Of a stretch of 21,556 nucleotides of DNA, positions 1,676 through 17,132 are shown piece after piece. Every line of letters starts with the position of its first letter. The first letter of the stretch is position 1. The DNA is from an uncultured Dehalococcoidia bacterium (GTDB lineage Bacteria; Chloroflexota; Dehalococcoidia; Lucifugimonadales; CAZEDC01): positions 1 to 21,556 of the forward strand of contig CAZEDC010000086.1 of NCBI GenBank assembly GCA_964510985.1, read 5' to 3'. The translations under genes were made by a program, and so were the position numbers. Under the pieces are notes generated by a model. The model was not told the DNA's origin. It was given only the letters and a program-made list of their open reading frames with translations, and did not search any database.

Positions 1676-2503
1676 TTATCGTGCTCTTACCGCCGGCTCA
1701 ATCTCCGGCATGGCCGTTGCGGGCTCGCCCTTGATGCTCTCCACAATTTCAAATGCCGTCAGGACCGCGTTATCGTCGCCCTCCAATGCCAGGATCACCG
1801 CGCCCTCCGATCCGCCAACACCACCGGAGGAGACATGCGTGGCGGTTACCCCAGCGAGGACCTCGATAGCCTCCACCTCGGTGACCACCAGTGCGTTGAC
1901 GACGGGATTCAGTCCGACGAAGCTACCCATTGCATACTTGAATAGCCGGGTCCCGCACCTCATGGCCGCATCAATGACCGAGGGGATAAGCTTCTCGAGA
2001 CCAACGGGTATGATGAGATAGGAGCCTCTAGCGGTGAGCGTGGGCCAGATGGAGCCGATGGTGCCACCCGCTTCGTTCCCCACCAGGATGCCGGCGTTGC
2101 CTTCGATGTCAACTGCGTTGGCCCCCTTGATAGAAACGTCAGTGCTCTTAAACTCCTGCAGCACATCGTACGCTTCTTCTTGCACCAGCTTTCCCTGGCG
2201 GAATACCCATGGTCCCATTTGTCTCACCGTTCCCCCCAATCTCCGGTCGGTGACGACGCCGGAGGTGCAGTGGGGCCTATCGAGCCCCTCTACCCCCAAC
2301 TCTTCGACTATGAAAGAGGGGGTGATTCCACGGGATACGATGAACAGGCCGTCGTCGAGTGCGCGCCGGACTTCGGGGAGCTTCAAGACCGCTTTCGCGA
2401 TCAGACGCTTGGACTCGGAAGGGGCCAGAACTACTATTGCATGGGTCCGGTCGTCTCGCGTTCTTTCCAGGGGTTGTCTAAACGAGCTCGTATCGTAAAA
2501 CAA
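1676..2503 (-). CDS. Hypothetical protein, 275 aa, no confident family assignment. Gly-rich motifs VGNEAGGTIGS and SSGGVGGSEG give only a weak resemblance to a PurE/LarB-like nucleotide-binding fold.
   Basis: Long ORF with TTG start, confirmed by translating caa at 2501-2503 on the reverse strand. Protein-like composition. Preceded by conserved element A 152 nt upstream. Confidence 0.6.
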   Translation of the reverse strand: MFYDTSSFRQPLERTRDDRTHAIVVLAPSESKRLIAKAVLKLPEVRRALDDGLFIVSRGITPSFIVEELGVEGLDRPHCTSGVVTDRRLGGTVRQMGPWVFRQGKLVQEEAYDVLQEFKSTDVSIKGANAVDIEGNAGILVGNEAGGTIGSIWPTLTARGSYLIIPVGLEKLIPSVIDAAMRCGTRLFKYAMGSFVGLNPVVNALVVTEVEAIEVLAGVTATHVSSGGVGGSEGAVILALEGDDNAVLTAFEIVESIKGEPATAMPEIEPAVRAR

Positions 2504-2650
2504 CGCGTACTACTCCTTTCTTCTTCTGGCTTCCTTCAGCGGCGGGCAGGTACCAAGCGCTCCTATTAAAACCCTCACCCCGGTGTCCCCCTCCCCCTGG
2601 TGTATCAACTGGAGACACGGTGGGCGGGTTTTCTGGGACATGGTGATGAC

Positions 2651-2762
2651 CTGCCCCATCTTTGTACCACCTGTCACGGTAGCCCCACAAGGACGGGAAC
2701 CGTGTCGGTACCGATACCGGTCAGACCCGAGCATCCTCGACCCGGGAAAGATTATCGCTGAC
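2651..2762. repeat. Conserved intergenic element, copy A: a ~45-nt core (2655-2697) plus a palindromic block TCGGTACCGATACCGGTCAGACCCGA and a GATTATCGC (-10-like on the minus strand) box at 2750-2758
   Basis: The core CCCATCTTTGTACCACCTGTCACGGTAGCCCCACAAGGACGGG aligns with copies B-E. The flanking blocks are 14/14 and 26/27 identical to copy B. Located 152 nt upstream of the TTG start at 2503. Confidence 0.7.
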
Positions 2763-2829
2763 GTCCAACACACAAGGCTCATGATGAGAACCGCATGTGG
2801 GCCGACTTCTGTGGGTGACACAAGCTCCG

Positions 2830-3942
2830 TTAATGCCCTTTGGACCGGTTACCAACTGCTCTCCCGCAGTCCTTGTATGCGCTGAGAAGCGCATTCACAT
2901 TCTGTAGAGGTGTGTCGGCCTGGATGTTGTGGGATGTGCACAGAATGTAGCCACCACGAGGAGCAAGTGCCTGAATTCTGTCCTCAACTTCCCTGCGGAC
3001 ATCCTCGGCGGTGCCGAAGGGAAGGGTCCTCTGGATCGAAATACCTCCATGAAACGCGAGTCGGCCACCGAACACAGCCTTCAACTCGCGAGGCTCCATG
3101 CCCGGCGCCTCTGGTTGAAGCGACTGAAGTATATCCAGCCCGCGTTCGATCATGAGCGGTATGAACGGTCGGACAGCCCCGCATGTGTGATGCATCACAC
3201 GAATGCCGTACCCCTTTGCAATACCCACGTATTCTGTAAAACCTTCCCCGAGGAAGTCCAACCACATTGTTGGAGAGATCAAAGGCCGATCCTGAGCGCC
3301 AAAGTCATCCCCCGTGAGTAGGATATCCATCTTCCCTTTTGCGGCATCAAAGATCCTCTCGGCGTAGGAACAGTAAAAACCGCGAATGTTGGAAAGAATT
3401 GCTTTGGCAAGGTCAGGGTTAGAGCCCATGTCAACAAATATCGCTTCGATGCCGCGAATGTACATGGCAGGCTTTAGCTGCGAGACGCGATTCAGACGGT
3501 CCCCCATGAAGACGACGACTCTCTCTTGCTTACGGATTCTCTCGCACTGCGCCTCTATGTCGCTGTAGTCGAACCAATCGGCAGAGGGCCAGTGGCCATA
3601 GTCTAAGACCTCTTCAACGGTCGTCGCCGAAGCCAGAGGAGACTCCACCACTTCCTCGTAACTTTCTGCCCCGCCGTCTGTCGGCACCACAACTGTCTTG
3701 CGGCGTACCCCCCAGAGATCATCGGATGACCCGTCCGAAAAGTTTTGCAGTGGTGGCCCAATGTACCTGGGACCCGCGATATACCGAAAATCGATATCGT
3801 GAGAGTCGAGAAACATGTCCTCGGTCACTCCCAACACCGATTCGAGCTTGCGTTTGAATCCTTTGGACATCCAGAAGTCAACGGGAACCCTGTCGGGCTG
3901 CTCAAAATTTAGTGCTAGAAACGTACGTTCTCGCGAGTTCAT
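2830..3942 (-). CDS. Uroporphyrinogen-decarboxylase (URO-D) family protein, MtaA/CmuA-like methyltransferase/decarboxylase
   Basis: 370-aa ORF. N-terminal RERTFLALNFEQPDRVPVDFW is typical of the URO-D/MtaA family. ATG at 3942 with an AAGGT Shine-Dalgarno ~11 nt upstream. Confidence 0.8.
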   Translation of the reverse strand: MNSRERTFLALNFEQPDRVPVDFWMSKGFKRKLESVLGVTEDMFLDSHDIDFRYIAGPRYIGPPLQNFSDGSSDDLWGVRRKTVVVPTDGGAESYEEVVESPLASATTVEEVLDYGHWPSADWFDYSDIEAQCERIRKQERVVVFMGDRLNRVSQLKPAMYIRGIEAIFVDMGSNPDLAKAILSNIRGFYCSYAERIFDAAKGKMDILLTGDDFGAQDRPLISPTMWLDFLGEGFTEYVGIAKGYGIRVMHHTCGAVRPFIPLMIERGLDILQSLQPEAPGMEPRELKAVFGGRLAFHGGISIQRTLPFGTAEDVRREVEDRIQALAPRGGYILCTSHNIQADTPLQNVNALLSAYKDCGRAVGNRSKGH

Positions 3943-3972
3943 TCGGTTAAACCTTGGTTTCCGGCAATGCCT

Positions 3973-4224
3973 TTACCAGGACTTAAAAACATTCGGTTGC
4001 GTCCAGGCGCGAGCGCCGTTCGAGAAGATGACGGAATCGCGGAAGTAGGACTCGTCGTCATCTGGACGGCAGGCGGCTTTCAGTCCGAAGGCCTCTTTCA
4101 GCGTCATCCGATGGGCACCGACAATCCGTGTGGTGAAGAGAGCATCACCCTCCTGACAAATCCGCACCTCTACCTCGTCCGACCCCTGCTTCGGAAATGG
4201 TACAACTCTGGATATTGGATGCAC
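3973..4224 (-). CDS. Small hypothetical protein (83 aa), possibly co-transcribed with the downstream URO-D-family gene
   Basis: GTG start at 4224. Lies 30 nt upstream of the URO-D gene on the same strand. A GCGATAAT -10-like motif (4320-4328) sits ~90 nt upstream. Composition is protein-like, but in high-GC DNA an ORF of this length can arise by chance. Confidence 0.3.
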   Translation of the reverse strand: MHPISRVVPFPKQGSDEVEVRICQEGDALFTTRIVGAHRMTLKEAFGLKAACRPDDDESYFRDSVIFSNGARAWTQPNVFKSW

Positions 4225-4310
4225 CTAAAAGGAAGCCTTTTGGTGCGAAGGAATCGGCTGTGAAGGGGTGACCTGATCTCAATTCAGAGGCCAGGTCCGA
4301 GCCGAGGAGG

Positions 4311-4328
4311 CCCGGGAAAGATTATCGC
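4311..4328 (-). promoter_or_regulatory. Second exact copy of the 18-mer cccgggaaagattatcgc (minus-strand sense GCGATAATCTTTCCCGGG); candidate -10-like promoter element or operator
   Basis: Identical 18-mer at 2741-2758 (in element A) and at 4311-4328. Here it lies just downstream of the oxidoreductase stop and ~375 nt upstream of the URO-D-family start, with the 83-aa ORF in between. Confidence 0.4.
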
Positions 4329-4357
4329 GTCTTACTCGACGCCGAGCGGCAGGTGAC

Positions 4358-5917
4358 CTAAGAGGCCGTCCTTTGCAGGTCCTTAAGAATTGCATGGGCC
4401 GCGTTGTGCCCAGGAGCGCCCGTCACAGCGCCCGACGGATGGGTACCCGCACCGCACATGTAGAAGTTTTGGATGGAAGTCCGGTAAGGCTGGCGCTGGG
4501 ACAGTAACTGACTGGGAATCTGGTCAAGGTGGCAGATGTTGCCATCGGTCAAACCCACCCTCGTCTCCATGTCCAGAGGGGTCTGGAAGGTCCAGTCCAG
4601 AAGGCTGTCACGGAAGTTGGGCGCGTATTCGTTGAACGCGTCGATGATCTGCTCGCCCACCTCCTCTCTGGCATCGTCCCAGGTGCCGTCTTTCAAGCGA
4701 GGGGGCTCCCATACGACCCAGTTGGACATCACATGGCCACTGTGGCGAACGAGGTCGGGGTCCACCAGGCTGGTAAGCTGGATATGCATGACGGGGCAAG
4801 TTGTCGGCTTGCCATTGATGGCGTCGACCCAGCTCTGCTGGTAGTACTCGACCGAAGGCGCTACCTGAATGGTCGGTATCGAGGTCGGGTCGTAACCGTT
4901 TCCCAGATACCGGGAAAGATCAGGAAGCTCACTTAGCGCCGCCAGGAATTTCGCGTTTCCCGCGTTTGTCTTCCACCTCTTCACGCGTCTGACGGTCTCC
5001 TCGCCGACCTCCTCGGGCTGGAACAGGGTGGTGAAGGTACGCTTTGGGTCCGCATTGGATACGACGAGGTAGCTCAGGATCTCTTCTCCGTTTTCAAGCC
5101 GCACTCCCCTGGCCACCCCGTCCTCCACGATGACCTCCTTGACCGGCGCCCCGGTCCTGATCTCCGCTCCAAAACTTCTGGCGGCTCTGGCAATGGACTC
5201 CGAGACGGTCCCCATGCTCATCTTGGGGATGCCCCGGTCAACATCCCTGGTGAAGCGGTCGCAGTTGTACATGGCGATACCCAGCATACTTCCAGGGGAA
5301 GACGGGTCGGCCTGAATGCCAGCCCTCATGAAATGCGCCTTGACATGTTCCTCCTCGAAGTGGTCTTCCACCAGGTCGATAAAGCTCCAGGTCAGGAGCT
5401 TCTCCAGGACCTCTTCCCTACGTGTCCCACGGACGCTGACCATCAGGTCGGAGATTGTGGGAGGCTCCGTCATGAAGTAGGGATAGACGATTGCCGACGC
5501 CTCCTCCCAGAAGGAGACCCAATCGAAATAGGTGCGCGCGTCGTGCTCCGAAAAATTGCGGATCTGCTCGGCGGTGTCATAGTTGTTACTGATACCGGGA
5601 CCACCCAGGAAGGTCCCATCGGGGAAGAGGTGGATGGTTTGCGACAGGTCGGCTTTCGTGTGACTGTATGCCAACTCGAAGCCGTGCTCTCTGAGCTTGA
5701 GTTCGTCAATGACCTTCCCCTGGAGAAGGTGGACTATGTAGGCGCACATTGGACCCGAGAATCCCGGTGAGAACTCGTCGGTCGTCGAGGCGCCGCCCAC
5801 CTTGTCCAACCGCTCCAGGACCAAAACGGAAAGCCCGTCTCTGGCAAGGTAGCCGGCAGTCACCAGCCCGTTGTGGCCTGCGCCAACGATGATTGCGTCG
5901 TACTGATTTTCGGCCAT
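4358..5917 (-). CDS. FAD/NAD(P)-dependent oxidoreductase, phytoene-desaturase (CrtI/CrtD) family
   Basis: N-terminal Rossmann motif DAIIVGAGHNGLVTAGYLARDGLSVLVLE. C-terminal GAGTHPSGAVTGAPGHNAA, typical of the CrtI family. The ORF track begins at a TTG at 6022, but the ATG at 5917 is preceded by GGAGGAG 10 nt upstream and is the likelier start. Confidence 0.85.
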   Translation of the reverse strand: MAENQYDAIIVGAGHNGLVTAGYLARDGLSVLVLERLDKVGGASTTDEFSPGFSGPMCAYIVHLLQGKVIDELKLREHGFELAYSHTKADLSQTIHLFPDGTFLGGPGISNNYDTAEQIRNFSEHDARTYFDWVSFWEEASAIVYPYFMTEPPTISDLMVSVRGTRREEVLEKLLTWSFIDLVEDHFEEEHVKAHFMRAGIQADPSSPGSMLGIAMYNCDRFTRDVDRGIPKMSMGTVSESIARAARSFGAEIRTGAPVKEVIVEDGVARGVRLENGEEILSYLVVSNADPKRTFTTLFQPEEVGEETVRRVKRWKTNAGNAKFLAALSELPDLSRYLGNGYDPTSIPTIQVAPSVEYYQQSWVDAINGKPTTCPVMHIQLTSLVDPDLVRHSGHVMSNWVVWEPPRLKDGTWDDAREEVGEQIIDAFNEYAPNFRDSLLDWTFQTPLDMETRVGLTDGNICHLDQIPSQLLSQRQPYRTSIQNFYMCGAGTHPSGAVTGAPGHNAAHAILKDLQRTAS

Positions 5918-6058
5918 GAGTCGTTGCTCCTCCACGTCAGCGCTATCGGCGGCGAGTTCCTTAAAGCGGGAGGTCGACCGCCAGGATGGGGCGATTGTAG
6001 TCAGACCGCGGCAGGCCGTCAACTAGAAGCCCGATCGCGTCTATCCGGGTAGCTACAG

Positions 6059-6183
6059 CCTGCCCCCCCATCTTTGTACAACTCGATATATTCGTCCCAT
6101 AAGAGCAGGGATCGTCTCGGTACCGATACCCGGTCAGACCCGAATTGAGGAAGCCTGGATTAGATTATCACAGTCCCATTATC
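6059..6183. repeat. Conserved intergenic element, copy B: core (6067-6110) plus the same palindromic block (6114-6143) and two GATTATC/CATTATC boxes at 6163-6169 and 6177-6183
   Basis: CCCATCTTTGTACAACTCGATATATTCGTCCCATAAGAGCAGGG, followed by GTCTCGGTACCGATACCCGGTCAGACCCGA. Contains the perfect palindromes TTGTACAA and TCGGTACCGA. Located 150 nt upstream of the ATG at 5917. Confidence 0.7.
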
Positions 6184-6344
6184 CCTGATGTCCTACGTGC
6201 ACGGGCACAGGATAGGGGTAGGCGCTTGGAGTGCGGGGCGAAGTCCTACTGCGCCATCGAGGGCCCTATCAAAACACTTGAGAACCTAGAGGACTACGTC
6301 AGCTATCCGCACAAGCAAGTCGTTTATTGGGTCCCATGGGGGAA

Positions 6345-7190
6345 TCAGCGGCCCTTCCAGACCGGTTTCCGCTTCTCCACAAACGCCCGTGGCCCCTCCC
6401 TTGACTTCCAGTCCGCCGATTGGCGTAATGTCGCTCCGACAATGTCGTCCAGGTCCCACGCCCGCAGCCCTCGGTCGTCCAGGTACTCAAGCGGCCGGTC
6501 CAGGCTCTTTGTCGCCAGCTCCTTGGTGACGCGGGTCGCGACCGGCGAGTTCTCGTTGATCTTGTCCGCCATCGCTATAGCTTCTTCCATGAGCCTGTCA
6601 GGAGGCACCACCTTGTTTATCAGACCTACCCGTAGGGCTTCCTCGGCGGTGATGTGCTCTCCGGTGAGGAGCATCTGCATTGCGATCTTGAGAGGGATCT
6701 GTCGGGGAAGACGATGGATCCCACCGGACCCCGGATAGGTGCCGACGTTCCTGATCTCCGGGACCCCGAAGCTGGCGGTCTCAGAGGCGATGACGATATC
6801 GCAGGCCATAGCTATTTCCAGACCACCTCCCAGACAGTAGCCGTTGACGGCTGCGATGATTGGTTTCCAGATCTCACGATGGACCAGGCCTCCTTCCTGG
6901 ATTGGGGAATCGCCGGCCTCTCGCTCAGACACGGGCATCACCCTCTGTTCTTCGGTGAGGGTGGTCATCGCTTTGATGTCAGAGCCCGCGCAGAAAGCTT
7001 TATCGCCCGCGCCCGTGATGATCGCTACCCACACCTCTGGGTCTTCGTCGAAGTCCGTCCAGACGTCGTAGAGCTCCGAGTTGGTCTCGTAGCTTACCGC
7101 GTTCATCACGTGTGGGCGATTGATGGTCACGAAAGCCGTCCTGTCCCTCTTCTCGTAGAGAACATCTTTGTACGCCATCATACCCTCCAT
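6345..7190 (-). CDS. Enoyl-CoA hydratase/isomerase (crotonase) family protein. The true start may be the Met codon ending at 7178, which has a GGAGG 5 nt upstream.
   Basis: Crotonase-fold motifs: FVTINRPHVMNA, ITGAGDKAFCAGSDIK, AAVNGYCLGGGLEIAMACD. It is the last gene of a four-gene minus-strand operon with 67-86 nt spacers. Confidence 0.85.
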   Translation of the reverse strand: MEGMMAYKDVLYEKRDRTAFVTINRPHVMNAVSYETNSELYDVWTDFDEDPEVWVAIITGAGDKAFCAGSDIKAMTTLTEEQRVMPVSEREAGDSPIQEGGLVHREIWKPIIAAVNGYCLGGGLEIAMACDIVIASETASFGVPEIRNVGTYPGSGGIHRLPRQIPLKIAMQMLLTGEHITAEEALRVGLINKVVPPDRLMEEAIAMADKINENSPVATRVTKELATKSLDRPLEYLDDRGLRAWDLDDIVGATLRQSADWKSREGPRAFVEKRKPVWKGR

Positions 7191-7259
7191 ATTCCTGAGA
7201 ACACGCTGCCGCGTTCGAGCCCCGGCACTGCCTCGGAACTGCCCTGCGTCGGCCTTCTG

Positions 7260-8477
7260 CTAGATCACCTTTTCTATCCTCAGAGCGTCCACCTCTTCCC
7301 GGGTATAACCAATGGACAGCAAGACCTCGTCGTTGTGCTGGCCCAGGGTAGGTGGAGCAGTCCGGATCTGGGCCGGTGTTTTAGAGAGTTTGTAGGGGAC
7401 GCCGGGCAGTTTCAGGGGCCCAATCGGGCTGTCAACCGTGACCACCATCTCGTTGTGTAGTACCTGGGGATCGGAGAAGACTTCGGGGAAGCTGTTCACC
7501 GGCGCCGCCCACAGGTCTGCCTCTTCCATGAGTGGCAGCCATTCGGCGGTGGTCTTCCGGCCCAGGGCCTTCTCGATCAGCCTTCCCAACTCCACTCTGT
7601 TCTTGTAGCGTTTGAGCGGAGTATCGAACCGCGGGTCCTCCGTCAGATCGGTTGTGCCCAACACCTTTGATAGCGCGGGAAACAGGTGGCCTCCGGATAT
7701 TGCGATGGAGTCATCCTTGGTCTTGTAGACTCCGTATGGGGCCGGCTGGTAAGGACAGCCATGTTCCGGGGCGCCTCGCTGGGGCTCAATCCCCGTGTTC
7801 AGGAAGTGTACGGCCATCTCTGATAGCCCCGCGACGGTGCTACTCAGCAAATTCACGTTCACCTGTTGACCTTCGCCCGTGAGATTCCGATGGAAGAGTG
7901 CGCCCAGCACACCGAACGCGCCATACATGGCCCCCAGCAGGTCGGAGAGCGGGAACCCAACAGCCGTAGGGCGCCCATCCGCTGTCGCGTTCATGGTGTC
8001 GAATCCACCTAGCGCCTGGGCCAGCATATCCTGTCCCGGTCTGCGGGCGTAAGGGCCATCAGCACCGTAGCCGGTAGCCGAAGCGTAGATTATCGATGGA
8101 TTTATCTCGCAACAGTCCTCGTATCCGAAGCCGAGGCGGGACATGACTCCCGGTCGAAAGTTCTCGTACACCACGTCGCAGGTCTCGAGGAGCCGACGCG
8201 TGATTTCTTTCCCTTTTTCCTGTTTCAGGTCAATGGTTATACTCTTCTTGTTTCGGTTGTGAGCAAGGAACGTTGCCGGCGCGAACGTACTGTCCTCCTC
8301 GGTCTTACCGTAATCGCCGTGTAGACCGTAGCGCTCATCCACACGGCCGGCGGGCAACCCGGGCCTTTCGACCTTGAAGACCTCAGCTCCCAGGTCACTC
8401 AGCATCTGCGTCGCCTCAGGGCCCTGCATCATGATGGTGAAATCTAGGATTCTTATGCTATCCAGTGGCAATGCCAT
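7260..8477 (-). CDS. Class III CoA-transferase (CaiB/BaiF/formyl-CoA transferase family)
   Basis: N-terminal LDSIRILDFTIMMQGPEATQMLSDLGAEVFKVERPG is the family-III signature. ATG at 8477 is preceded by GAGGTGA 5 nt upstream; the GTG at 8480 listed in the ORF track is probably not used. Confidence 0.85.
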   Translation of the reverse strand: MALPLDSIRILDFTIMMQGPEATQMLSDLGAEVFKVERPGLPAGRVDERYGLHGDYGKTEEDSTFAPATFLAHNRNKKSITIDLKQEKGKEITRRLLETCDVVYENFRPGVMSRLGFGYEDCCEINPSIIYASATGYGADGPYARRPGQDMLAQALGGFDTMNATADGRPTAVGFPLSDLLGAMYGAFGVLGALFHRNLTGEGQQVNVNLLSSTVAGLSEMAVHFLNTGIEPQRGAPEHGCPYQPAPYGVYKTKDDSIAISGGHLFPALSKVLGTTDLTEDPRFDTPLKRYKNRVELGRLIEKALGRKTTAEWLPLMEEADLWAAPVNSFPEVFSDPQVLHNEMVVTVDSPIGPLKLPGVPYKLSKTPAQIRTAPPTLGQHNDEVLLSIGYTREEVDALRIEKVI

Positions 8478-8566
8478 CACTCACCTCGTAAATCGGGTTC
8501 TAACTGAGTGCGCCGGGGAAGCCGGCTACGTTCCGCAACATCCGCTGTCGGCGTATGCCGGGCCGG

Positions 8567-9595
8567 TCAGGCTTTCCGCGATGGCAGGCTGACAACCGCC
8601 TGGCCTATGGTCACCTTCCGGGCCTCCTGGTTCTCGGCCCACACCTCGAAGTCAACCAGGTTCTCACCGCCCTCTTGGCGCTTTCCGGTGACCACACCCC
8701 TGGTGGTAAGCACGTCGCCGGGGAAGCTGAAGTATCGGTACTGGACCCTGATCTTCCTCAGGAAGCCGTCCGGTGCGTACCAGTCGCTGAGCATGCTGAC
8801 GATATAGGCCGCACTCAGAGCCCCTTGGCCTATCACATCGGGCATACCGCGTGCTCTCATCAGTCTGTAGTCGTAATGGATCGGCGTGAGGTCGTTGCTG
8901 GCCTGGGCATACCGTACGAACCGCTTCGGCGTTTGCAGCATAGATATCGGCAGTGGCTCGAACCCTTTTGATATGTCCTCGAAGTAGACTCGCCTCGTCC
9001 ACATTCTCTCCCGTACGGTGGTAGAGGACGCCTGGCCGGCATCCGTTGGGTTTGGCATTTGTGGAGCATCGACCTGCTCCTCACCTCCATCGGTCGGACC
9101 CTCAAACTGTACACGGGTCCACCGGCAGATGGACACGATTTCGTTCCGCTGGTTGCGGTATGTCTTGTCGTACCTGGTGAATAGCATGCGACCCACACCG
9201 GGCCGTCCCTGTTTCTCGAACATATCGCCTATGTCGGTGGTCGCTGTGATTACGTCGCCGGGACAGACCGGCCGGTGGATCTCGTATTCGTCGCCCGCGC
9301 TGGCGCCCTGCTTGAAGGGTGCATCGATCGGCAAAGGCCCACCGAGATAGCCCTGGGAGTTGTCGTCTGCCAGCACGTAAAACGGGGTGAACCGGTCGAC
9401 GAACGTCGGTGGCGCAATGATGCCTCGCCAGCGGGTAGTCGCAGCGTAATCCGCGTCAAGCCACAATGGGTTGTTGTCGCCCACCGCCGTGGCGAACTTG
9501 CGGATATCCTCAACATGCACCACTCCACCGACGTAAGGCTCGCCCTGCCACGTCCCAACCAGGGCTCTCATTTCGTCTGTGATCACCTTTGACAT
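8567..9595 (-). CDS. MaoC-like double-hotdog (R)-specific enoyl-CoA hydratase/dehydratase, mesaconyl-CoA / itaconyl-CoA hydratase-like
   Basis: 342 aa with two hotdog halves (N-terminal MaoC_dehydrat_N-like, C-terminal MaoC). GGGAGG Shine-Dalgarno 13 nt upstream of the ATG at 9595. Confidence 0.8.
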   Translation of the reverse strand: MSKVITDEMRALVGTWQGEPYVGGVVHVEDIRKFATAVGDNNPLWLDADYAATTRWRGIIAPPTFVDRFTPFYVLADDNSQGYLGGPLPIDAPFKQGASAGDEYEIHRPVCPGDVITATTDIGDMFEKQGRPGVGRMLFTRYDKTYRNQRNEIVSICRWTRVQFEGPTDGGEEQVDAPQMPNPTDAGQASSTTVRERMWTRRVYFEDISKGFEPLPISMLQTPKRFVRYAQASNDLTPIHYDYRLMRARGMPDVIGQGALSAAYIVSMLSDWYAPDGFLRKIRVQYRYFSFPGDVLTTRGVVTGKRQEGGENLVDFEVWAENQEARKVTIGQAVVSLPSRKA

Positions 9596-9662
9596 CTTTG
9601 CGGTGCCTCCCTTATCGAGTAATCCCTTCCGGCGTAACCAGAGAGGCTACTCTCGATAACCA

Positions 9663-10676
9663 CTATAGGGCCGCCGTCCCATAAGGATTACCGGCCAAGA
9701 TATACGCCTGGTCGATGAGACGGACGGCGCGGTAGCAGTCGTTGACACTGATGGGCGGCTTGTCGCCTCGGGCCGCCGCGTCCAGGGCCTCCCGCAATAC
9801 CATCGCCGAGAGGTTGCCGGGAGGCTCCGACGGCAAGACCTGTTCGCCTGACGCTGTGTTCAGCTTCAACACGTCGTCTTTGAAGGTCAGCAGGGCGTCG
9901 CGGAACGCAACCTTCCACTCGCCGTCTGTACCGTCCCTGGGAAATCCGTTGCCCACCTCGATTGTCCCAACCACCCCTTGACCGGACCTGACCAGCACCG
10001 AGGCGTAGTCCTCCACCGGCTGGTCGTGGGTGCTCCAGGAGAGTTGCGCTCCGGTCACCTCAACGTCCTCGCCCTCGCCGGTCAGGAGCACGAATGCGTC
10101 CAGCCCGTGGGAACCGAGATTGCGCAGGCATCCACCGTTGGCGATCTTGGGGTCCAGCATCCACCCGGCGTTCCAGGTCGGGTACCGCCCTGAAGTCGGC
10201 CTGTTCATCCTTTCGTAGAAGTGGGTGATCGGGCCGTACGTGTCGTCCTGGATCAGCTTTCTGGCCTGCTTTATCACCGGTAGATGCCGGCAGCTCAGAG
10301 GGACCGCCGCGAACCCATCGGTCACCTCTGCCCTCTCTAACACCTCTCGAAGCTGCCGTGCGCTATAGCTCATCGGCTTTTCCATTAGGAAAGGCATCTT
10401 GTTGTCCAGGAGGTGGAGTGCGGTTCGCGCCATGGTATCGTGCCGCCCCAGAGCCAGCACGAAGTCCGGCCCGGCCTCGGACAGCATCCGCTTGTAGTCG
10501 GTGAAGGTGGGGATACCGCCGCCCAGCTCCCCCGCTCGATGATCCGCTATCGTCTGATCATCGTCCTGGATGCCCACGATCTCCACGTCGTCCATCAGGG
10601 CCAAGTGGCGGAGATAGGACGCATCATACAGTGAATGCCAGTGGCACACCCCGATAGCCGCTACGCGAATAGACAT
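9663..10676 (-). CDS. Gfo/Idh/MocA-family NAD(P)-dependent oxidoreductase
   Basis: N-terminal Rossmann IRVAAIGVCHWH. EKP motif FLMEKPMSYSARQ, characteristic of Gfo/Idh/MocA. The ATG at 10676 has a GAGG Shine-Dalgarno 9 nt upstream; the track's GTG at 10691 is less likely. It is the first gene of the operon; element C lies 143 nt upstream. Confidence 0.85.
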   Translation of the reverse strand: MSIRVAAIGVCHWHSLYDASYLRHLALMDDVEIVGIQDDDQTIADHRAGELGGGIPTFTDYKRMLSEAGPDFVLALGRHDTMARTALHLLDNKMPFLMEKPMSYSARQLREVLERAEVTDGFAAVPLSCRHLPVIKQARKLIQDDTYGPITHFYERMNRPTSGRYPTWNAGWMLDPKIANGGCLRNLGSHGLDAFVLLTGEGEDVEVTGAQLSWSTHDQPVEDYASVLVRSGQGVVGTIEVGNGFPRDGTDGEWKVAFRDALLTFKDDVLKLNTASGEQVLPSEPPGNLSAMVLREALDAAARGDKPPISVNDCYRAVRLIDQAYILAGNPYGTAAL

Positions 10677-10818
10677 GCTCGATAACCTCACCCTGGATTA
10701 TGATACTCTGTGATTTCCTGTCTCTTGTCTCGGACCGGCCGGGTAATATCCAGGTTTGGCGCGCGTTACCAATCAGCAGGTCTGAGCGGTGTCGTGGCCG
10801 AGCAAGACTGGACTACCT

Positions 10819-10930
10819 CCCCGTCTTTGTACCACTCGTTATTGTGTCCCACAAGTGCAGGGCAGTTCCGGCGGGCAAGTCGCCTCTACACTCTCGGGTT
10901 TTCTATTCCTCAGACGTGATGCTCATTATC
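10819..10930. repeat. Conserved intergenic element, copy C: core (10819-10862) plus a CATTATCGC box at 10924-10932. It lacks the TCGGTACCGA block.
   Basis: CCCCGTCTTTGTACCACTCGTTATTGTGTCCCACAAGTGCAGGG. Located 143 nt upstream of the ATG at 10676, the first gene of the four-gene operon. Confidence 0.7.
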
Positions 10931-11136
10931 GCTTACGGCTTACACTCACTGCCCGGAGTCCGGAGTACAGAGATGGCTGTAGCAGGTCATTCTCATCAGC
11001 CTCAGCACACACAGCTACTACCAGCCTGGATCTTGCCCCTCGACCATGCCCTGTCGATCCAGAACATGCGTGCAAATATCGCTTTGAAGGCATTAGGGCC
11101 TCCCGCATGACCTCCGCCTGTTGGCGGCGACGACGC

Positions 11137-13026
11137 TCAGTAGTAGAAGCGCTGTAGCCGCTTCTGGTCATCGTATTCTGCCCGGAGACCTTTCGTAATC
11201 GAGTCGGTGGTTGTCTCGGCGACGGCGAGGTCCCACCAGACTCCCGTGGACGGCACGTACCGGTGCTTTTCGGTTTCCGCCACGATGACGCAAGACCGCG
11301 TGTCCTCACGAGCCTCTCGCAGGGCTATGCGAAGCTCATCCGGTGTTGTCACGTGCCACGCTCGAGCGCCCATGCTCTCTGCGTTTTTGGCGAGATCGAT
11401 CTTCAGATATTCGCCCTCGAGCCGGTTCGTCGTGGCATCACGGGCCCTGAACTCGTTGCCGAAGCTGTGGCCGGTACGGTCCACCTGAAGAGCGCGGATC
11501 GACTGAAGGCCGTGGTTCTCCGAGATGACAACGGTGACTTTCAGATTCTCCTGCATCGCCGTCACCAGTTCGGTCGGGTTCAACAGGTATGTCGCGTCTC
11601 CAATAAACGCGTACACCTCACCTTTCGGCTGGGCCATGCGGACACCTAATGCGGCCGGCAGTGCATACCCCATCGTCGAGTTGCCGAACTCGAGGTGACA
11701 GGTCGTGCCGTTGCTAACATCCCAGAGTTTGTGCAGGTCGTGGGGGAGAGTGCCGGCGTCGCCAATGACGGTATCACCCTCTTTCGTCTCTTCATTGAGC
11801 ACGCCGATCACCTGCCCCTGATTCATAGCCTCGCCGGCGACCTGCCGGAATATTCCTTCTCTGGTCTGCCTCCAGCTTTCCTTTGCCGCCGAGATCTCCT
11901 CAAGGTAGGCAGGATCGGGTGCGAGACCGGCGTCCTTCGCCGCCACTATCAGCGCCCGCAACGCTTCGCGGGCGTCGGCAACGATTGGCAGCGAGCCCAG
12001 CTTATGCGCATCGTAGGCGCACACGTTGATGTGGATGAATCTGACCCGTGGGTGCTGGAAGGAGGAACGGGAACCCGTAGTGACATCGGTCAGGCGAGTG
12101 CCAATGGCGATAACCAGGTCCGCCCGCTCCGCAATCTCCGTGGTGATGGGCGTGCCGGGGGTGCCGTGGCTGCCGAGAGACAGCGGAGAGTTGTTCTCAA
12201 GCGCGCCGTGACCGGCGAACGTCTCACCCACCGGGATGCCGAGTGGGTCGGAGAGTTCCCGTAGCTCCTCGCACGCCTCGGAGTAGAGCACCCCGCCGCC
12301 GGCGATGATCAAGGGCCGCTCTGCCTCCCCGAGCAACGTTACCGTTTGGTTTATGTGGCGTGGGTCCGGCGCCCGCCGATCGACACACCAGGTCCGGTCC
12401 TCGAAGAAGTGGGCAGGGTAGTCGTAGGCCTCGGCCTGGACGTCCTGAGGCAGCGAGAGTGTGACGACTCCCGTTTCGGCCGGATCGGTCAGCACGCGCA
12501 TCGCTTCGGGCAATGCGGTGAGCAGTTGCTCGGCTCGCGATATGCGGTCGAAGAAACGACTCACGGGCCGCAGGCAATCGTTGACGCCCACATCGGCCGA
12601 GACCGGGTGCTCGAGTTGCTGCAACACCGGCCCTTGGTGGCGGGTCGCGTAGTAATCGGACGGCAACAACAGCACGGGCAGCCGGTTGATGGTCGCTGCC
12701 GCCGCTCCGGTAACCATATTTGTCGCCCCAGGCCCAATGGACGACGTGCAGGCTATCGTTGCAAGACGGAGATTGGCTCTGGCGAATCCAGCGGCTGTGT
12801 GGACCATCGCCTGCTCATTGCATGGCCGATGGTACGGTAGATCTGCACCGTATTCATAGAGGGCCTGACCCAGGGCATGCACGTTCCCGTGACCGAAGAT
12901 GCCGAACATGGCTGGAATCAAGCGGCGTCTCCTGCCGTCGTGTTCGCTGTACTGGACCTGCAGATACTTCACCAGCGCCTGCGCCATCGTCAGGCGCAAC
13001 GTTTCTCCGTGATGAGATTCACGCAT
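11137..13026 (-). CDS. iolD: TPP-dependent enzyme of the IolD / cyclohexane-1,2-dione hydrolase family (3D-(3,5/4)-trihydroxycyclohexane-1,2-dione acylhydrolase-like)
   Basis: 629 aa. The N-terminus LRLTMAQALVKYLQVQY...FGIFGHGNV...NEQAMVHTAAGFA...DPAETGVVTLSLPQDVQAEAYDYP and the C-terminus STGVWWDLAVAE match the IolD pattern as I recall it from Bacillus subtilis. ALS-like three-domain TPP architecture. Confidence 0.8.
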   Translation of the reverse strand: MRESHHGETLRLTMAQALVKYLQVQYSEHDGRRRRLIPAMFGIFGHGNVHALGQALYEYGADLPYHRPCNEQAMVHTAAGFARANLRLATIACTSSIGPGATNMVTGAAAATINRLPVLLLPSDYYATRHQGPVLQQLEHPVSADVGVNDCLRPVSRFFDRISRAEQLLTALPEAMRVLTDPAETGVVTLSLPQDVQAEAYDYPAHFFEDRTWCVDRRAPDPRHINQTVTLLGEAERPLIIAGGGVLYSEACEELRELSDPLGIPVGETFAGHGALENNSPLSLGSHGTPGTPITTEIAERADLVIAIGTRLTDVTTGSRSSFQHPRVRFIHINVCAYDAHKLGSLPIVADAREALRALIVAAKDAGLAPDPAYLEEISAAKESWRQTREGIFRQVAGEAMNQGQVIGVLNEETKEGDTVIGDAGTLPHDLHKLWDVSNGTTCHLEFGNSTMGYALPAALGVRMAQPKGEVYAFIGDATYLLNPTELVTAMQENLKVTVVISENHGLQSIRALQVDRTGHSFGNEFRARDATTNRLEGEYLKIDLAKNAESMGARAWHVTTPDELRIALREAREDTRSCVIVAETEKHRYVPSTGVWWDLAVAETTTDSITKGLRAEYDDQKRLQRFYY

Positions 13027-13308
13027 GCTTTCACTTTCTTCGGATTGTCAAGTTAGCCGATGCCTGCACGTACCGCACGGTGGCCCCCCGGAGTAGGGTG
13101 GTTGCTTGCCTCACGCAGCTTGTTAGTGACCGGCTCGTGTATGTATCACCTTTGGCGAGTCTCCCTTTTTCTCCGGCCAAGGGGACTAACATAACACCTG
13201 GGCCTGTTTTGGGAGGCAGGCCACCGAGCAGACACGGGGTTATCATACTTCCAAGCCTGCTGATTGACGGCGACTCAGAAGTCAGAAAAGGTCCTCCCGT
13301 TGCCCTGC

Positions 13309-13995
13309 TTACTCCGGCCTCTGTATCTTGCGCAGGCCCTCCAGCGAGAAGTCGTCGCTCTGGGCGAAGTTCATTATCTGCTTCTCTCGGTATGCTATCT
13401 CCGCTGCTGCCTGAGGCACTTTGCCCGCTATCTCCAGCGGGATTTTGACCACGCCGTTCTCATCGCCGTGCACAAGGTCACCGGGGAGCACCTCCACCTC
13501 GCTGACCACAATCGGTACACCGACATCCACTACCTGGAACTGCCCGTGGGCCGGAGTCATCCCTGGCGCGAAGTACTGGAACCCAAGCGCCCGTACGCCC
13601 TCAATGTCCCGCACGCCGCCATCGGTGACCAGACCGATGGCCCCCAGTTTGCTGGCGATGGTGGCCATCACGTCGCCGCAGTGGCATGAGTGAGAATTAC
13701 GCGGTGAGATGTCCTTAAATACCAGCACCACGGGCTTGGGCGATGCATCCACGGCCTCCCACAAACGCATCATCGGCTCCCGACTCTGTTGGCGCGAGGG
13801 TGTCATCGTGTCAAGGGTGGCGGTGACGGCGTATCCCAGCATCACTCCCATCTCCGGGAACTGGCAACGGATGTTCCAGCCCATAAACCCCTCCGAGTTG
13901 CGTCGTACCTTCAACGGCTCGATGGCATTGCAGATGGTAGGCGTGTCGATGCGTTTTAGCGCGTCGAACTGCTCCTGTGTCAGTACCTTAGACAT
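13309..13995 (-). CDS. RraA-family protein (class II 4-hydroxy-4-methyl-2-oxoglutarate / 4-carboxy-4-hydroxy-2-oxoadipate aldolase / oxaloacetate decarboxylase-like)
   Basis: Motifs GDVMATIASKLGAIGLVTDGGVRD and C-terminal GDLVHGDENGVVKIP align with RraA/HMG-CHA aldolase. The ATG at 13995 has a near-perfect AAAGGAGG 7 nt upstream. The track ORF extends to 14178, but that upstream 61-aa extension (MVRSLDAGSLKLKTRPDNRP...) does not look protein-like. Confidence 0.85.
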   Translation of the reverse strand: MSKVLTQEQFDALKRIDTPTICNAIEPLKVRRNSEGFMGWNIRCQFPEMGVMLGYAVTATLDTMTPSRQQSREPMMRLWEAVDASPKPVVLVFKDISPRNSHSCHCGDVMATIASKLGAIGLVTDGGVRDIEGVRALGFQYFAPGMTPAHGQFQVVDVGVPIVVSEVEVLPGDLVHGDENGVVKIPLEIAGKVPQAAAEIAYREKQIMNFAQSDDFSLEGLRKIQRPE

Positions 13996-14192
13996 AACGA
14001 GTCCTCCTTTGAAATCTGGGTCGACCCCGCCCACGGACGATGGGCCGGACTTCTTGTATTGGGCGTGATTTTGCGGGTGCCTTTTGTTGCCGTGATATCC
14101 TGATTCTAGCAGAGCTAGAGGCCGGTTATCTGGCCGAGTTTTCAATTTCAAACTGCCAGCGTCCAAAGAACGCACCATCCGTGACGTTGACG

Positions 14193-14396: not shown

Positions 14397-15197
14397 TTGA
14401 AAATGAAGCCAGAGAATCTTCCCCAGGATCCAAGACAACTGCGTGCTGCCATCCGAGAAGGCACGTGGACACGGACCACAGCTGGGTTGGCGCCGGGCTA
14501 CGTTCAGGCCAAACTAGTTATTCTACCCGGCGACCTAGCCTTTGACTTCCTCCTGTTCTGCCAACGGAACCTCAGCCCATGCCCCGTTCTGGAGGTAGTT
14601 GAGGCGGGTTGTGCGGAGCCGAGATACTCCGCTCCAGGAGCGGACCTGAGGTCTGACCTGCCCCGTTACATCATCTATCAGCAAGGCGAGCTGACCCACG
14701 AGTTGGCTGACATACGCGAATACTGGCGCGACGACCTTGTCTCGTTTCTCCTTGGGTGTGCCTTCAGCTTCCAGGAAGCCCTGACACAGGAAGGCATACC
14801 TGTTCGTCATCTCGAGGAGGGCAAGAGCGACCCGACCTTTGTCTCCAATATCGAGACGACTCCCGCGGGTGTGTTCTCCGGCCCGATGGTCGTCTCCATG
14901 TGGCCTATTCATCGGCAAAGTTTGAGTAGAGTAGTCCAGATCACCACACGGTTCCCCGCCTTGCACGGTGCGCCAGTGCACATAGGAGATCCCGGTGTCA
15001 TAGGCATCAAGGACCTGAGCAGACCGGACTACGGCGACGCGGTGGAGCTGAGGAGTGGAGAGGTGCCGGTGTTCTGGGGGTGCGGCGTCACCCCACAGGA
15101 AGTGGCCCTCCGTAGCAAACCGTCGCTGATGATCACACACTCCGCAGGTCGGATGTTCATTACCGACCTGCGATACACAGAGCTGGAGGTGTTCTAG
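14397..15197 (+). CDS. DUF1445 / UPF0317 'putative hydro-lyase' (C-terminal domain of D-glutamate cyclase-like enzymes)
   Basis: The N-terminus LRAAIREGTWTRTTAGLAPGYVQAKLVILP is the characteristic DUF1445 opening. TTG start at 14397 with GAGGTG 9 nt upstream; the ATG at 14403 is an alternative start. Confidence 0.8.
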   Translation: MKMKPENLPQDPRQLRAAIREGTWTRTTAGLAPGYVQAKLVILPGDLAFDFLLFCQRNLSPCPVLEVVEAGCAEPRYSAPGADLRSDLPRYIIYQQGELTHELADIREYWRDDLVSFLLGCAFSFQEALTQEGIPVRHLEEGKSDPTFVSNIETTPAGVFSGPMVVSMWPIHRQSLSRVVQITTRFPALHGAPVHIGDPGVIGIKDLSRPDYGDAVELRSGEVPVFWGCGVTPQEVALRSKPSLMITHSAGRMFITDLRYTELEVF

Positions 15198-15292: not shown

Positions 15293-16159
15293 ATGACAGA
15301 GACAAACAGGTCGCAAGAGTCGATAGAGGATATCATCCTGTGGCACGACGAGCGGGGCATGACCGCGCTGCGTCCCCATCTGCCGCCGGACTACTGCGTG
15401 CAGGCGGCACGGTTCATCTACGAACGGCCGGGGACGGTTCTCGTCGTGACCGGCTTTTATGAAATCGAACCTCATACGATCGAAACCGACGGTCCACCCG
15501 GTGCTCTGGCGGTAGGTCGTGCCCTCCAGGACTGCGACCGAGACGTGGTCTACATAAGCGACAAGTACGCGGTGCCTTACCTGGAGCCGGAAGCCCGAGG
15601 AGCCGATGTTGTAGAGTTCCCCATCACCGGGGCTGAAGAAAGCCGCGCGTTCGCGCTCTCTCTGCTCGACCGGTACAGGCCGTCTGTGGTCATGGCGTTG
15701 GAGCGATGCAGCGCAACCCAATCGGGCCGGTACCTGAACATGTCTGGGAAAGATATCACCATCTACACCGCTCGTGTCGACTACCTGTTCACAGAGCATT
15801 CGGCCACCGTCGGCGTGGGCGATGGCGGAAACGAGATCGGCATGGGCAAGCTTGCCCATATCATCCCCACGGTACCATCCCTGCCCGATAAGCCGGCCCT
15901 GACTTCTGCTACCCATCTGGTCGTGACCAGTGTCTCCAACTGGGGCGGCTACGGACTTGCCGCAGGTCTCTCCATCCTGGCAAGGCGAGACCTACTGCCG
16001 TCCAGAGAAGAGGAGGCGGGCCTGATTCGACGAATGGTGGATAGGGGTGCCGTGGATGGAAAACTCATGAAACCGGTACCCGGTGTCGACGGCTACACCC
16101 TTGAAGAAAACCTGGACATACTGGACAGGCTTCGACAGCTGGTGGCGGCCTCAATGTAG
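15293..16159 (+). CDS. Probable DUF4392-family protein, the separate-gene partner of DUF1445 (N-terminal domain of D-glutamate cyclase in animals)
   Basis: 288-aa ORF 95 nt downstream of DUF1445 on the same strand. Gly-rich GVGDGGNEIGMGK motif. The family call rests on recalled domain architecture (DUF4392+DUF1445 fused in DGLUCY), not on a search. Confidence 0.6.
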   Translation: MTETNRSQESIEDIILWHDERGMTALRPHLPPDYCVQAARFIYERPGTVLVVTGFYEIEPHTIETDGPPGALAVGRALQDCDRDVVYISDKYAVPYLEPEARGADVVEFPITGAEESRAFALSLLDRYRPSVVMALERCSATQSGRYLNMSGKDITIYTARVDYLFTEHSATVGVGDGGNEIGMGKLAHIIPTVPSLPDKPALTSATHLVVTSVSNWGGYGLAAGLSILARRDLLPSREEEAGLIRRMVDRGAVDGKLMKPVPGVDGYTLEENLDILDRLRQLVAASM

Positions 16160-16385: not shown

Positions 16386-17132
16386 ATGCCCAATATTAGA
16401 CAAAACAAAATCCTGGCAAAAAACCGTGAAGGTAAGCTGGGAGTGGGTCTGGGATTAGTGTTCCCCAGTGCTGAATCAATCGGACTGGTGGGCTTACTTG
16501 GGGGGTTCGATTTCATTCACTTGGATGGCGAGCATGGACTGTTTTCCCCTGAAAGCATAGACGCAATGGTACGCACAGCGGATGGATACGGACTGACCGT
16601 GACGGCCCGTGTTCCCAACATAGAAAGTTCAACAATCAACCGGTTCCTTGACCGGGGCGTAATGGGCATCCTTGGACCGCACATCGAAACGGCAAAGCAG
16701 GCGAGGCAGTTGGTGGATGCGTGCAGATTCGTTCCTAAAGGTCAGCGGTCCTGGGGCGGTGGCCAAGGAACGTTTTACAACGATGGCCGTTTGCTGGACC
16801 AGCCCGGACTGAGGCGCACCGAATGGATGGCAGCGACAAATGAAGAGATGGTAGTGTCGGCCCAACTTGAAACAGCACTGGCCTTCGAAAACTTGGGCGA
16901 TATTTTAGCGGTTGACGGATTAGACGCCTTTGCATGGGGTTCGAATGACCTTGCCCAGTCGATGGGCCTGCCTGGTCAACCCGACCATCCTGATGTCAAA
17001 GCAGCCGAGGCATCCGTAGAAGCTCGGATACACGCAGAGGGCCGTAAGATGCTCTGGGATATGCAGACGGCGATAACTTTGCCATCACTTATACTCGATG
17101 GCGCAGATGTATTCGCTAAAGCTAACGCATAA
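16386..17132 (+). CDS. HpcH/HpaI-family class II (pyruvate-specific, metal-dependent) aldolase, HpaI/GarL/RhmA-like
   Basis: 248 aa. Metal-site motif FIHLDGEHG and C-terminal VDGLDAFAWGSNDLAQSMG are diagnostic of the HpcH/HpaI aldolase family. Strong AGGAGAAG Shine-Dalgarno 9 nt before the ATG. The gene has distinctly lower GC and AT-rich codons compared with its neighbours. Confidence 0.85.
   Translation: MPNIRQNKILAKNREGKLGVGLGLVFPSAESIGLVGLLGGFDFIHLDGEHGLFSPESIDAMVRTADGYGLTVTARVPNIESSTINRFLDRGVMGILGPHIETAKQARQLVDACRFVPKGQRSWGGGQGTFYNDGRLLDQPGLRRTEWMAATNEEMVVSAQLETALAFENLGDILAVDGLDAFAWGSNDLAQSMGLPGQPDHPDVKAAEASVEARIHAEGRKMLWDMQTAITLPSLILDGADVFAKANA

Follow-up and report, generated by a model that had tools for sequence, protein, structure and literature searches.

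When a gene of inositol catabolism stands next to an operon for coenzyme A (CoA)-dependent chemistry, do the two serve one pathway or have they only come to lie side by side? The question is raised by contig CAZEDC010000086.1, whose 21,556 nucleotides (nt), here called the window, come from a SAR202-type (Dehalococcoidia) lineage and carry a gene for an IolD-like thiamine pyrophosphate (TPP) enzyme followed by a cassette of four genes encoding a Gfo/Idh/MocA oxidoreductase (Gfo), a double-hotdog MaoC hydratase, a class III CoA-transferase and a crotonase. The dark ocean is rich in SAR202 bacteria, which are believed to oxidise recalcitrant dissolved organic matter. The original prediction was of a single catabolic route in which Gfo oxidises a diol to a dione, IolD opens the ring, and the product is activated with CoA and degraded by hydration and β-oxidation-like steps. 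Statements on genes missing from the locus apply to this one contig.

We lean modestly towards a different reading, namely that of two separate units in the interval, whose adjacency in one SAR202-type lineage is incidental. It draws on the 445-nt spacing between the units, the lack of conservation of their adjacency, the different partners that each keeps elsewhere, the membership of Gfo in the cassette and the high background of transferase paralogues. Nothing in the locus falls outside known kinds of enzymes; the novelty lies in a lineage-restricted cassette, in an IolD lineage whose neighbours are not the canonical ones, and in a common upstream element.

Organization of the locus

Pfam and NCBIfam scans of 26 open reading frames (ORFs) of the window, among them all ORFs of at least 240 amino acids (aa), bear out the positions, the minus-strand orientation and the family calls of the five genes in the original prediction. 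The main ORFs from 204 to 14178 lie on the minus strand throughout and read, from right to left, RraA-like protein, IolD, Gfo, double-hotdog hydratase, CoA-transferase, crotonase, flavin adenine dinucleotide (FAD) oxidoreductase, URO-D/MtaA-like protein, a 275-aa protein and an M28-like peptidase, with an even GC content across the region. The features on which the argument turns are the following.

13309..14178, minus strand: RraA-like (HMG/CHA-aldolase family) gene; Pfam RraA-like, E 4e-25; the start may be M62 at 13995
11137..13026, minus strand: iolD; three TPP domains (Pfam), TIGR04377
10692..11136, minus strand: IolD–Gfo spacer, 445 nt; one element copy inside, at 10813-10870
9663..10691, minus strand: Gfo/Idh/MocA oxidoreductase (Pfam), first gene of the cassette operon; likely start ATG at 10676 (337 aa)
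8567..9595, minus strand: double-hotdog hydratase; Pfam FAS1_DH_region at residues 14-154, MaoC_dehydratas at 222-309
7260..8480, minus strand: class III (CaiB/BaiF) CoA-transferase; Pfam CoA_transf_3, E 2e-109
6345..7190, minus strand: crotonase-fold enoyl-CoA hydratase, last gene of the operon; Pfam ECH_1, E 3e-65
4358..6022, minus strand: CrtI/CrtO-family FAD oxidoreductase, a unit of its own; Pfam Amino_oxidase, DAO, NAD_binding_8; likely start M36 at 5917
16386..17132, plus strand: HpcH/HpaI class II aldolase; Pfam E 1.5e-24

The four cassette genes are separated by 67, 86 and 69 nt and form the co-oriented, tightly spaced unit that had been described. IolD, which had been placed immediately upstream of this operon, is in fact parted from Gfo by 445 non-coding nt (10692-11136), and the distance from the crotonase gene to the FAD oxidoreductase gene is at least 322 nt. 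ORFs called in the spacers (10700-11110, 10789-11157, 6145-6738 and 13264-13689) have no Pfam match, and the IolD–Gfo spacer shows neither structure (folding z-score 0.22) nor an Rfam match; the window as a whole gave no Rfam match at the gathering threshold and no match in a tRNA scan. Of the two genes that flank the interval, the RraA-like one has NCBIfam matches that all lie far under their cutoffs, and the FAD oxidoreductase scores 240.8 bits on the CrtO model (cutoff 1000).

Assignment of the TPP enzyme

By its protein sequence, the gene at 11137-13026 is assigned to the IolD family. On TIGR04377, the equivalog model for IolD, the product reaches 789.7 bits against a cutoff of 715, its residues 11-626 covering positions 1-615 of the 616 in the model; it is of full length, free of frameshifts and intact in its TPP domains, with 81% identity to its nearest orthologue. 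Acetolactate synthase (ALS) is rejected as its identity, the best ALS model (TIGR00118) giving 226.3 bits against a cutoff of 538. The same holds for cyclohexane-1,2-dione hydrolase (CDH), whose structure 2pgn matches IolD at 81 bits (E 9e-22) and ranks under ALS (120-144 bits for the plant enzymes), glyoxylate carboligase and HACL. Oxc structures match at 69-81 bits, and the top PDB match is BbmA, as it is for an ALS-like TPP enzyme that heads a related cassette at another locus, L011.

A neighbour-joining tree unites the window clade with Bacillus IolD, Rhizobium IolD and the NGR234 homologue (42-46% identity inside this group) and sets them off by a long branch from the ALS-like outgroup (26-29% identity to it). 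The protein falls in the IolD family and not with ALS or CDH, and the outcome that would have refuted the family call, a grouping with ALS, did not occur. In the tree the window clade is a third lineage within the family, separate from both the Bacillus and the Rhizobium type; the window IolD is 43% identical to Bacillus IolD, and Rhizobium IolD is about as distant from the same protein (44.7%). Chloroflexi (SAR202 among them), Planctomycetes, Acidobacteria and Latescibacteria have numerous homologues at 67-81% identity; plasmid-borne homologues, annotated iolD genes among them, are 37-52% identical.

Family membership did not bring the usual partners with it. No IolB, IolC/PfkB, IolE/AP_endonuc_2, IolJ or IolA was found in the Pfam and NCBIfam scans of the 26 ORFs, and tblastn of the window (E up to 10) for degraded IolE-like, 187-aa partner, Gfo, 2-Hacid_dh and Aldedh genes returned nothing; the claim that no other iol genes accompany this one holds within the 21.5-kb contig. 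A functional inositol catabolic gene cluster (IolCatGC) comprises at least three of the genes iolB, iolC, iolD or iolE in a stretch of 10 kb, according to Weber and Fuchs (2022; PMC9430895), and of these four the locus has iolD alone. The window Gfo reaches 25.9 bits on TIGR04380, the model for IolG-type inositol 2-dehydrogenase, against a cutoff of 355.

Neighbourhoods of this IolD lineage elsewhere

Stretches of 13-22 kb were inspected around IolD homologues of this lineage, and none contained IolB, IolC or IolJ. An AP_endonuc_2 gene (an IolE-like TIM-barrel, weakly matched by the IolE model at 63.9 bits vs 290) adjoins IolD in L001-3, L004-8, L033 (two copies) and L034, and on pNGR234b, a megaplasmid of Sinorhizobium fredii NGR234, it lies about 2 kb from the IolD homologue on the opposite strand. 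A 187/188-aa gene and AP_endonuc_2 precede both a 76% SAR202 orthologue and the 81% orthologue, which is found on contigs of 4.3 Mb and 0.8 Mb and has a convergent HpcH aldolase in addition. An Ardenticatenaceae genome holds two IolD copies, each beside AP_endonuc_2 and one also with GntR, 2-Hacid_dh, Aldedh and ABC transporter genes; an Acidobacteria contig reads IolD-AP_endonuc_2-Gfo-HpcH; the 52% homologue of pNGR234b is surrounded by genes for three Gfo proteins, an SDR, an SGL lactonase and a LacI regulator; and the context in L035 consists of PhyH dioxygenases and an MFS transporter. Gfo, SGL, 2-Hacid_dh, Aldedh and HpcH genes are frequent near the lineage (L001-L008, L033, L034, L038), with HpcH adjoining IolD in L001-L003 and L034 and sharing 31-32% identity with the window HpcH. 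The lineage that keeps AP_endonuc_2, in Chloroflexi, Acidobacteria and a rhizobial megaplasmid, may serve a non-canonical cyclitol route.

MaoC, CoA-transferase and enoyl-CoA hydratase genes occurred in none of these six other IolD contexts, by Pfam tables and by tblastn of the window proteins. Conservation of the neighbourhood in relatives had been proposed as a check on the single route, and the outcome was negative: IolD and the cassette adjoin only in the window lineage and in its 93-95%-identical sister strain. The closest long contig that bears IolD (P0002, 4.3 Mb) appears to be absent from the MaoC-family clusters, in which the longest contig is 173 kb. With its usual IolE-like neighbour missing, the window IolD is an orphan on its contig.

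The cassette and its contexts

Key residues are intact in three of the cassette proteins, namely the catalytic glutamates of the crotonase (in GGGLE and PE), the catalytic D151 of the CoA-transferase (in DMLAQA) and D235/H240 of the hydratase (in SNDLTPIH). Gfo keeps its EKP motif; its Rossmann motif is degenerate, reading VAAIGVCHWH instead of GxGxxG, and its mode of cofactor binding may be atypical. The family of the double-hotdog protein, which serves as the marker of the cassette, is narrow, with about 30 clusters at 61% identity or above and then a drop to 36% or less. All five loci of the hydratase in genomes are from SAR202 or Dehalococcoidia metagenome-assembled genomes, nine further loci being metagenomic, and the cassette was found here only in SAR202/Dehalococcoidia. 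The hydratase has weak matches, only to mycobacterial HadAB/ChsH-type dehydratases, and an AlphaFold model built from a 13-sequence alignment was too poor for a fold search (mean predicted local distance difference test score 48.6).

The company that the hydratase (MaoC) keeps varies from locus to locus. With the transferase (CoAT) and crotonase (ECH), and identities to the window proteins in brackets, the orders are ALS-like TPP enzyme-MaoC-CoAT(86%)-ECH(90%) in L011; Gfo(75%)-MaoC(74%)-CoAT(74%)-SDR-AKR in L028; PF12831 FAD_oxidored-MaoC-CoAT(77%)-Amidohydro_2 in L030/L020; DHDPS-FAD_oxidored-MaoC-CoAT in L032, which has a second unit of single-hotdog MaoC-CoAT(70%)-ECH(75%); FAD_oxidored-MaoC-ECH-ACAD-CoAT in loci of the L014 type; and MaoC divergent from CoAT-ECH in L013. 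The transferase copies beside MaoC in L011, L020, L028 and L030 are 74-86% identical to that of the window, and the crotonase, for which no NCBIfam model reaches its cutoff, is 90% identical in L011 and 75% in L032. The conserved core is the hydratase plus the transferase, with or without the crotonase, and the head gene is exchangeable (FAD oxidoreductase, Gfo or ALS-like TPP enzyme).

Gfo belongs to this cassette, since in L028, a locus in which tblastn detected no IolD, its 75% identical counterpart is the gene immediately upstream of MaoC-CoAT. The window Gfo is unrelated to the IolD-linked Gfo of L034. The proposed diol-to-dione step, in which Gfo would feed IolD, has no specific support, as Gfo is not IolG-like and travels with MaoC-CoAT.

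The transferase is closest to dicarboxylate-type enzymes but lies far under every equivalog cutoff. Among NCBIfam models it matches succinate-glutarate CoA-transferase best (246.6 bits vs a cutoff of 750), and among PDB structures human SUGCT (252.7 bits); being roughly equidistant from Frc, YfdE and Mct, it cannot be given a substrate by homology. Two pairings with known CoA-transferases were rejected. A carnitine-type CaiB-CaiD pair fails on both proteins (CaiB 93.4 bits vs 413; crotonobetainyl-CoA hydratase 190.8 vs 500), and an oxalate-type Frc-Oxc pair on the Frc model (223.9 bits vs 504) and on the 69-81 bits between IolD and Oxc structures.

The original prediction had offered C5-dicarboxylate metabolism as its own alternative, that is, an itaconate/mesaconate-type module that forms citramalyl-CoA or methylmalyl-CoA and has nothing to do with IolD. 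Its family-level resemblance stands: a CoA-transferase paired with a double-hotdog hydratase is the architecture of Ict/Ich and Mct/Mch, the mesaconate CoA-transferase model does match the window transferase, and an HpcH-family gene is present on the contig. The specifics do not follow, in that the match to NF041294 (succinyl-CoA:mesaconate CoA-transferase) is 206.6 bits against 700 and that to mesaconyl-CoA isomerase 61.5 against 725, while mesaconyl-CoA and itaconyl-CoA hydratase models are not among the NCBIfam matches of the double-hotdog protein. The HpcH gene, moreover, lies 5.7 kb off on the other strand, has HpaI/GarL/RhmA-type matches (below cutoff) and is not a CitE-type CoA-ester lyase, and a lyase accompanies the cassette in none of the other contexts. 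We regard a C5 module as very improbable.

Finally, a transferase operon beside any given gene is not a rare event in this clade, for SAR202 genomes carry dozens of CaiB/BaiF transferases; Landry et al. (2017; PMC5395668) count 62 in five single-cell genomes and predict that they feed unusual carboxylates into β-oxidation-like routes.

Deletions in a sister strain

Two loci, L009 and L010, are 93-95% identical to the window at the DNA level and, apart from two gaps, run collinear with it. The first gap removes window positions 11143-12633, a 1.49-kb in-gene deletion joined at a 6-nt TACTAC microhomology, with no long direct repeats at the junction; IolD residues ~124-629 are lost and a 195-aa stub is left. 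The second, which is also present in the independent contig L019, removes positions 3979-8745, truncating MaoC at residue ~282 and taking out the transferase, crotonase and FAD genes. The RraA-like, Gfo, URO-D, 275-aa and M28 genes are retained at 92-98% identity, the RraA-like one at 91.7% in L009, where its called product has 228 aa. The cluster of truncated hydratases has members on many public contigs, one of them on 11, and the cassette deletion, at least, is common in nature. Both the IolD unit and the cassette unit are dispensable, as these deletions demonstrate.

The in-gene deletion in IolD invites the explanation that the gene is a stranded remnant of little or no current role, which lost its IolE-like partner by rearrangement and is now being eliminated from the population. 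The missing partner fits this account, for the contig carries neither an AP_endonuc_2 gene nor a remnant of one, whereas four contexts have this gene next to IolD and a fifth has it about 2 kb off, and so does the wide occurrence of the truncated-MaoC haplotype. The window copy itself speaks otherwise, being full length, above the equivalog cutoff, intact in its TPP domains, free of frameshifts and still 81% identical to its nearest orthologue, and its partners may lie elsewhere in the genome. We give the remnant explanation a small chance.

A common upstream element

When intergenic regions were compared, the DNA upstream of Gfo matched that upstream of the FAD gene at 18/20 positions; the window contains four occurrences of the 20-mer, where zero would be expected. 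Searches with nhmmer profiles of the window and ~0.6 Mb of fetched loci extended this to an element of ~60 bp with six copies in the window, all on the minus strand.

17977-17919, minus strand: element copy in a non-coding stretch
17774-17714, minus strand: element copy in the same non-coding stretch
14262-14201, minus strand: element copy before the RraA-like gene; nhmmer core model E 8e-15, 53.4 bits (first search E 1.4e-7)
10870-10813, minus strand: element copy before Gfo
6120-6061, minus strand: element copy before the FAD gene; nhmmer E 9e-15, 20-mer match
2708-2647, minus strand: element copy before the 275-aa gene and after the URO-D-like gene; nhmmer E 3.6e-12, 20-mer match

The sister strain has copies at L009 5-60, 1888-1943 and 5305-5366, and L011/L012 have a single copy (L011 8093-8149), directly before the TPP-MaoC-CoAT-ECH operon and the only one in those 21 kb; nhmmer found no others in the ~0.6 Mb. 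None precedes IolD itself, URO-D, HflKC, ABC-F or the plus-strand genes, and none lies within the COX gene stretch of L009.

The core, CCCTGCnCTTGTGGGACTAnnATAACGAGTGrTACAAAGATGGGG, resembles a -35 box followed, after an 18-nt spacer, by an extended -10 box, and the element is probably a specific promoter/operator. A riboswitch or leader RNA was rejected, RNAalifold giving -3.4 kcal/mol with an unfavourable covariation term. A perfect palindrome, TCGGTACCGA, lies ~25 nt further upstream of the copies that precede the FAD and 275-aa genes. There is also a sigma-70-like site at 6022-5994, to which we attach little weight because the promoter/terminator consensus scan performed at or near chance.

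The units have one element copy each. Read as a promoter/operator, the copy before Gfo would make the cassette operon a separate transcript, and with a copy before the RraA-like gene and none between this gene and IolD, the simplest view is that the RraA-like gene and IolD are probably co-transcribed. The IolD and Gfo units may share a regulator.

One pathway or two units

Several observations weigh against two unconnected units and deserve to be taken together. The element stands before RraA-like→IolD, the Gfo operon and the FAD gene, which is compatible with co-regulation, as is the copy before the cassette operon of L011. In the sister strain, IolD and most of the cassette are both gone, by two clean deletions that leave the genes between and around them intact; this joint loss is one observation compatible with a coupling of the units. 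The ~271 kb of MaoC-selected SAR202/Dehalococcoidia DNA (partly redundant) contains a sole gene of the ALS/IolD family, and it is the one that heads the cassette of L011. Two TPP enzymes near ~8-9 independent cassette contexts exceed a rough chance estimate, made post hoc (p about 0.01-0.02). The L011 enzyme (8243-9934, plus strand; PRK06112-type, 436.5 vs 673 bits) is co-oriented with MaoC and 66 nt upstream of it, and this is the best indication that a TPP-dependent C-C bond enzyme can act together with the cassette.

The common element, the double deletion and the co-transcription of a TPP enzyme with the cassette in L011 also count in favour of a single pathway. In such a route, Gfo would make a 1,2-dione from a cyclic diol or cyclitol, IolD would open the ring to an oxo-acid or dicarboxylate, the transferase would form the CoA ester, and the FAD enzyme, MaoC hydratase and crotonase would carry out β-oxidation-like steps, a CoA-dependent and non-phosphorylative alternative to IolB, IolC and IolJ. 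The arrangement of the genes on one strand, the resemblance of the transferase to glutarate/adipate-type SUGCT, the lack of iolB, iolC and iolJ on the contig and the degradation of alicyclic compounds that Landry et al. (PMC5395668) propose for SAR202 all agree with it. We nevertheless consider it unlikely. The adjacency is not kept beyond the window lineage and its sister strain, the 81% and 76% IolD orthologues keep an IolE-like partner without CoA genes, and Gfo goes with the cassette where no IolD is detected. Likewise, the L011 TPP enzyme is ALS-like and only 29-31% identical to IolD, the block has neither a thiolase nor a 3-hydroxyacyl-CoA dehydrogenase, and the 445-nt gap separates IolD from the operon. 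With IolD orthologues and the cassette each pairing with other genes elsewhere, the combined pathway of the original prediction is poorly supported.

A more specific version would make RraA-like→IolD, Gfo-MaoC-CoAT-ECH and the FAD oxidoreductase one element-marked regulon for a CoA-dependent, non-phosphorylative cyclitol or alicyclic route that replaces IolB/IolC/IolJ, with the ALS-like TPP enzyme of L011 as a non-orthologous replacement in the ring-cleaving or C-C-cleaving role. We judge this quite improbable.

Proposed roles and significance

Under the two-unit reading that we favour, we infer the following roles and order of reactions. In the first unit, IolD, probably behind the RraA-like gene, would open a cyclic 1,2-dione as a TPP-dependent hydrolase; by family membership its most likely substrate would be the inosose-derived trihydroxycyclohexane-1,2-dione, converted to 5-deoxyglucuronate. 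The second unit, the gfo-maoC-coaT-ech operon, would be a β-oxidation-like side route for an unusual acid. Its class III transferase would pass CoA from succinyl-CoA or a similar donor to a carboxylic acid, which is probably a dicarboxylate or a hydroxy acid; hydration or dehydration of the 2,3 bond would fall to two enzymes, the double-hotdog hydratase being (R)-specific and the crotonase (S)-specific; and Gfo would oxidise a hydroxyl, before or after CoA activation. A link between the units would be at most regulatory, via the common upstream DNA element.

These results correct a tempting operon-based inference. They also delimit a cassette whose first enzyme is interchangeable and which was seen here in SAR202/Dehalococcoidia alone, and bring out one IolD lineage that spans several phyla without canonical IolB/C/J neighbours. 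The common element and the natural deletion haplotype provide handles on co-regulation and dispensability. Should IolD and the cassette cooperate after all, they would represent a new CoA-dependent way to finish the degradation of cyclitol or alicyclic rings and give a concrete substrate class to one SAR202 CoA-transferase family. No earlier account of the arrangement turned up in literature searches that paired SAR202 with inositol or with enoyl-CoA hydratase. In term searches of PMC5395668, MaoC, enoyl-CoA hydratase, thiamine and acetolactate were all without a hit, and that paper appears not to describe the cassette or a TPP-enzyme neighbour.

Neighbouring genes

Divergent from the RraA-like gene, the plus strand carries an adjacent, split pair of D-glutamate-cyclase-like genes followed by the HpcH aldolase gene. 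The pair consists of D-Glu_cyclase/PRK05463 'putative hydro-lyase' (14397-15197) and GLUCM-like_C (15293-16159; Pfam: D-glutamate cyclase-like, C-terminal). Beyond the aldolase gene, 813 nt (17133-17945) have no convincing ORF and a lower GC content (0.526 for 17001-18000); the two element copies in this stretch may drive a small unannotated gene or RNA. The next gene, 17946-19856 on the minus strand, encodes one protein of 636 aa with HflK (residues 108-306) and HflC (357-601) matches in tandem and an alanine run in its N-terminal region, and it looks like an HflK-HflC fusion.

At the other end, a URO-D/MtaA-CmuA-like protein with a methyltransferase-type fold (2830-3942, minus strand) is followed by the 275-aa protein (1676-2503, minus strand), which has no family match except a sub-threshold one to a LUD domain. 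Both are 96-98% conserved in the sister strain.

Comparison with known systems

Canonical iol clusters (Bacillus iolABCDEFGHIJ; Rhizobium and Salmonella iolCDEB) share with the window an IolD above the TIGR04377 cutoff. The Bacillus mycoides locus packs iolG-iolC-mmsA-iolD-iolE-fba-iolB into 9 kb, and the Rhizobium IolD copy directly follows iolC, whereas the window has no iolB, iolC, iolE, iolG, iolJ or iolA. In place of the canonical IolB/C/J partners, the wider lineage of the window IolD keeps a divergent AP_endonuc_2 together with Gfo, SGL, 2-Hacid_dh or HpcH genes. Azoarcus CDH (PDB 2PGN) and the IolD family are alike in being TPP enzymes that hydrolyse a C-C bond of cyclic 1,2-diones on a three-domain ALS-like fold; at the level of sequence, however, the 81 bits between CDH and the window protein lie under those of plant ALS (120-144) and far under those of the IolD model (789.7).

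For the cassette, the likeness to Ict-Ich-Ccl and Mct-Mch is architectural only, a class III transferase beside a double-hotdog MaoC hydratase; the window differs in having no equivalog match and no CitE-type lyase, and in its extra crotonase and variable head oxidoreductase. SUGCT is the top structural and NCBIfam match of the transferase and has the catalytic Asp in common with it, although 246.6 bits against 750, and the rough equidistance from Frc, YfdE and Mct, set the two apart. A further parallel is provided by the paralogue expansions of CaiB/BaiF transferases and oxidoreductases in SAR202 described by Landry et al. (PMC5395668), which concern the same clade and the same enzyme families as the cassette.

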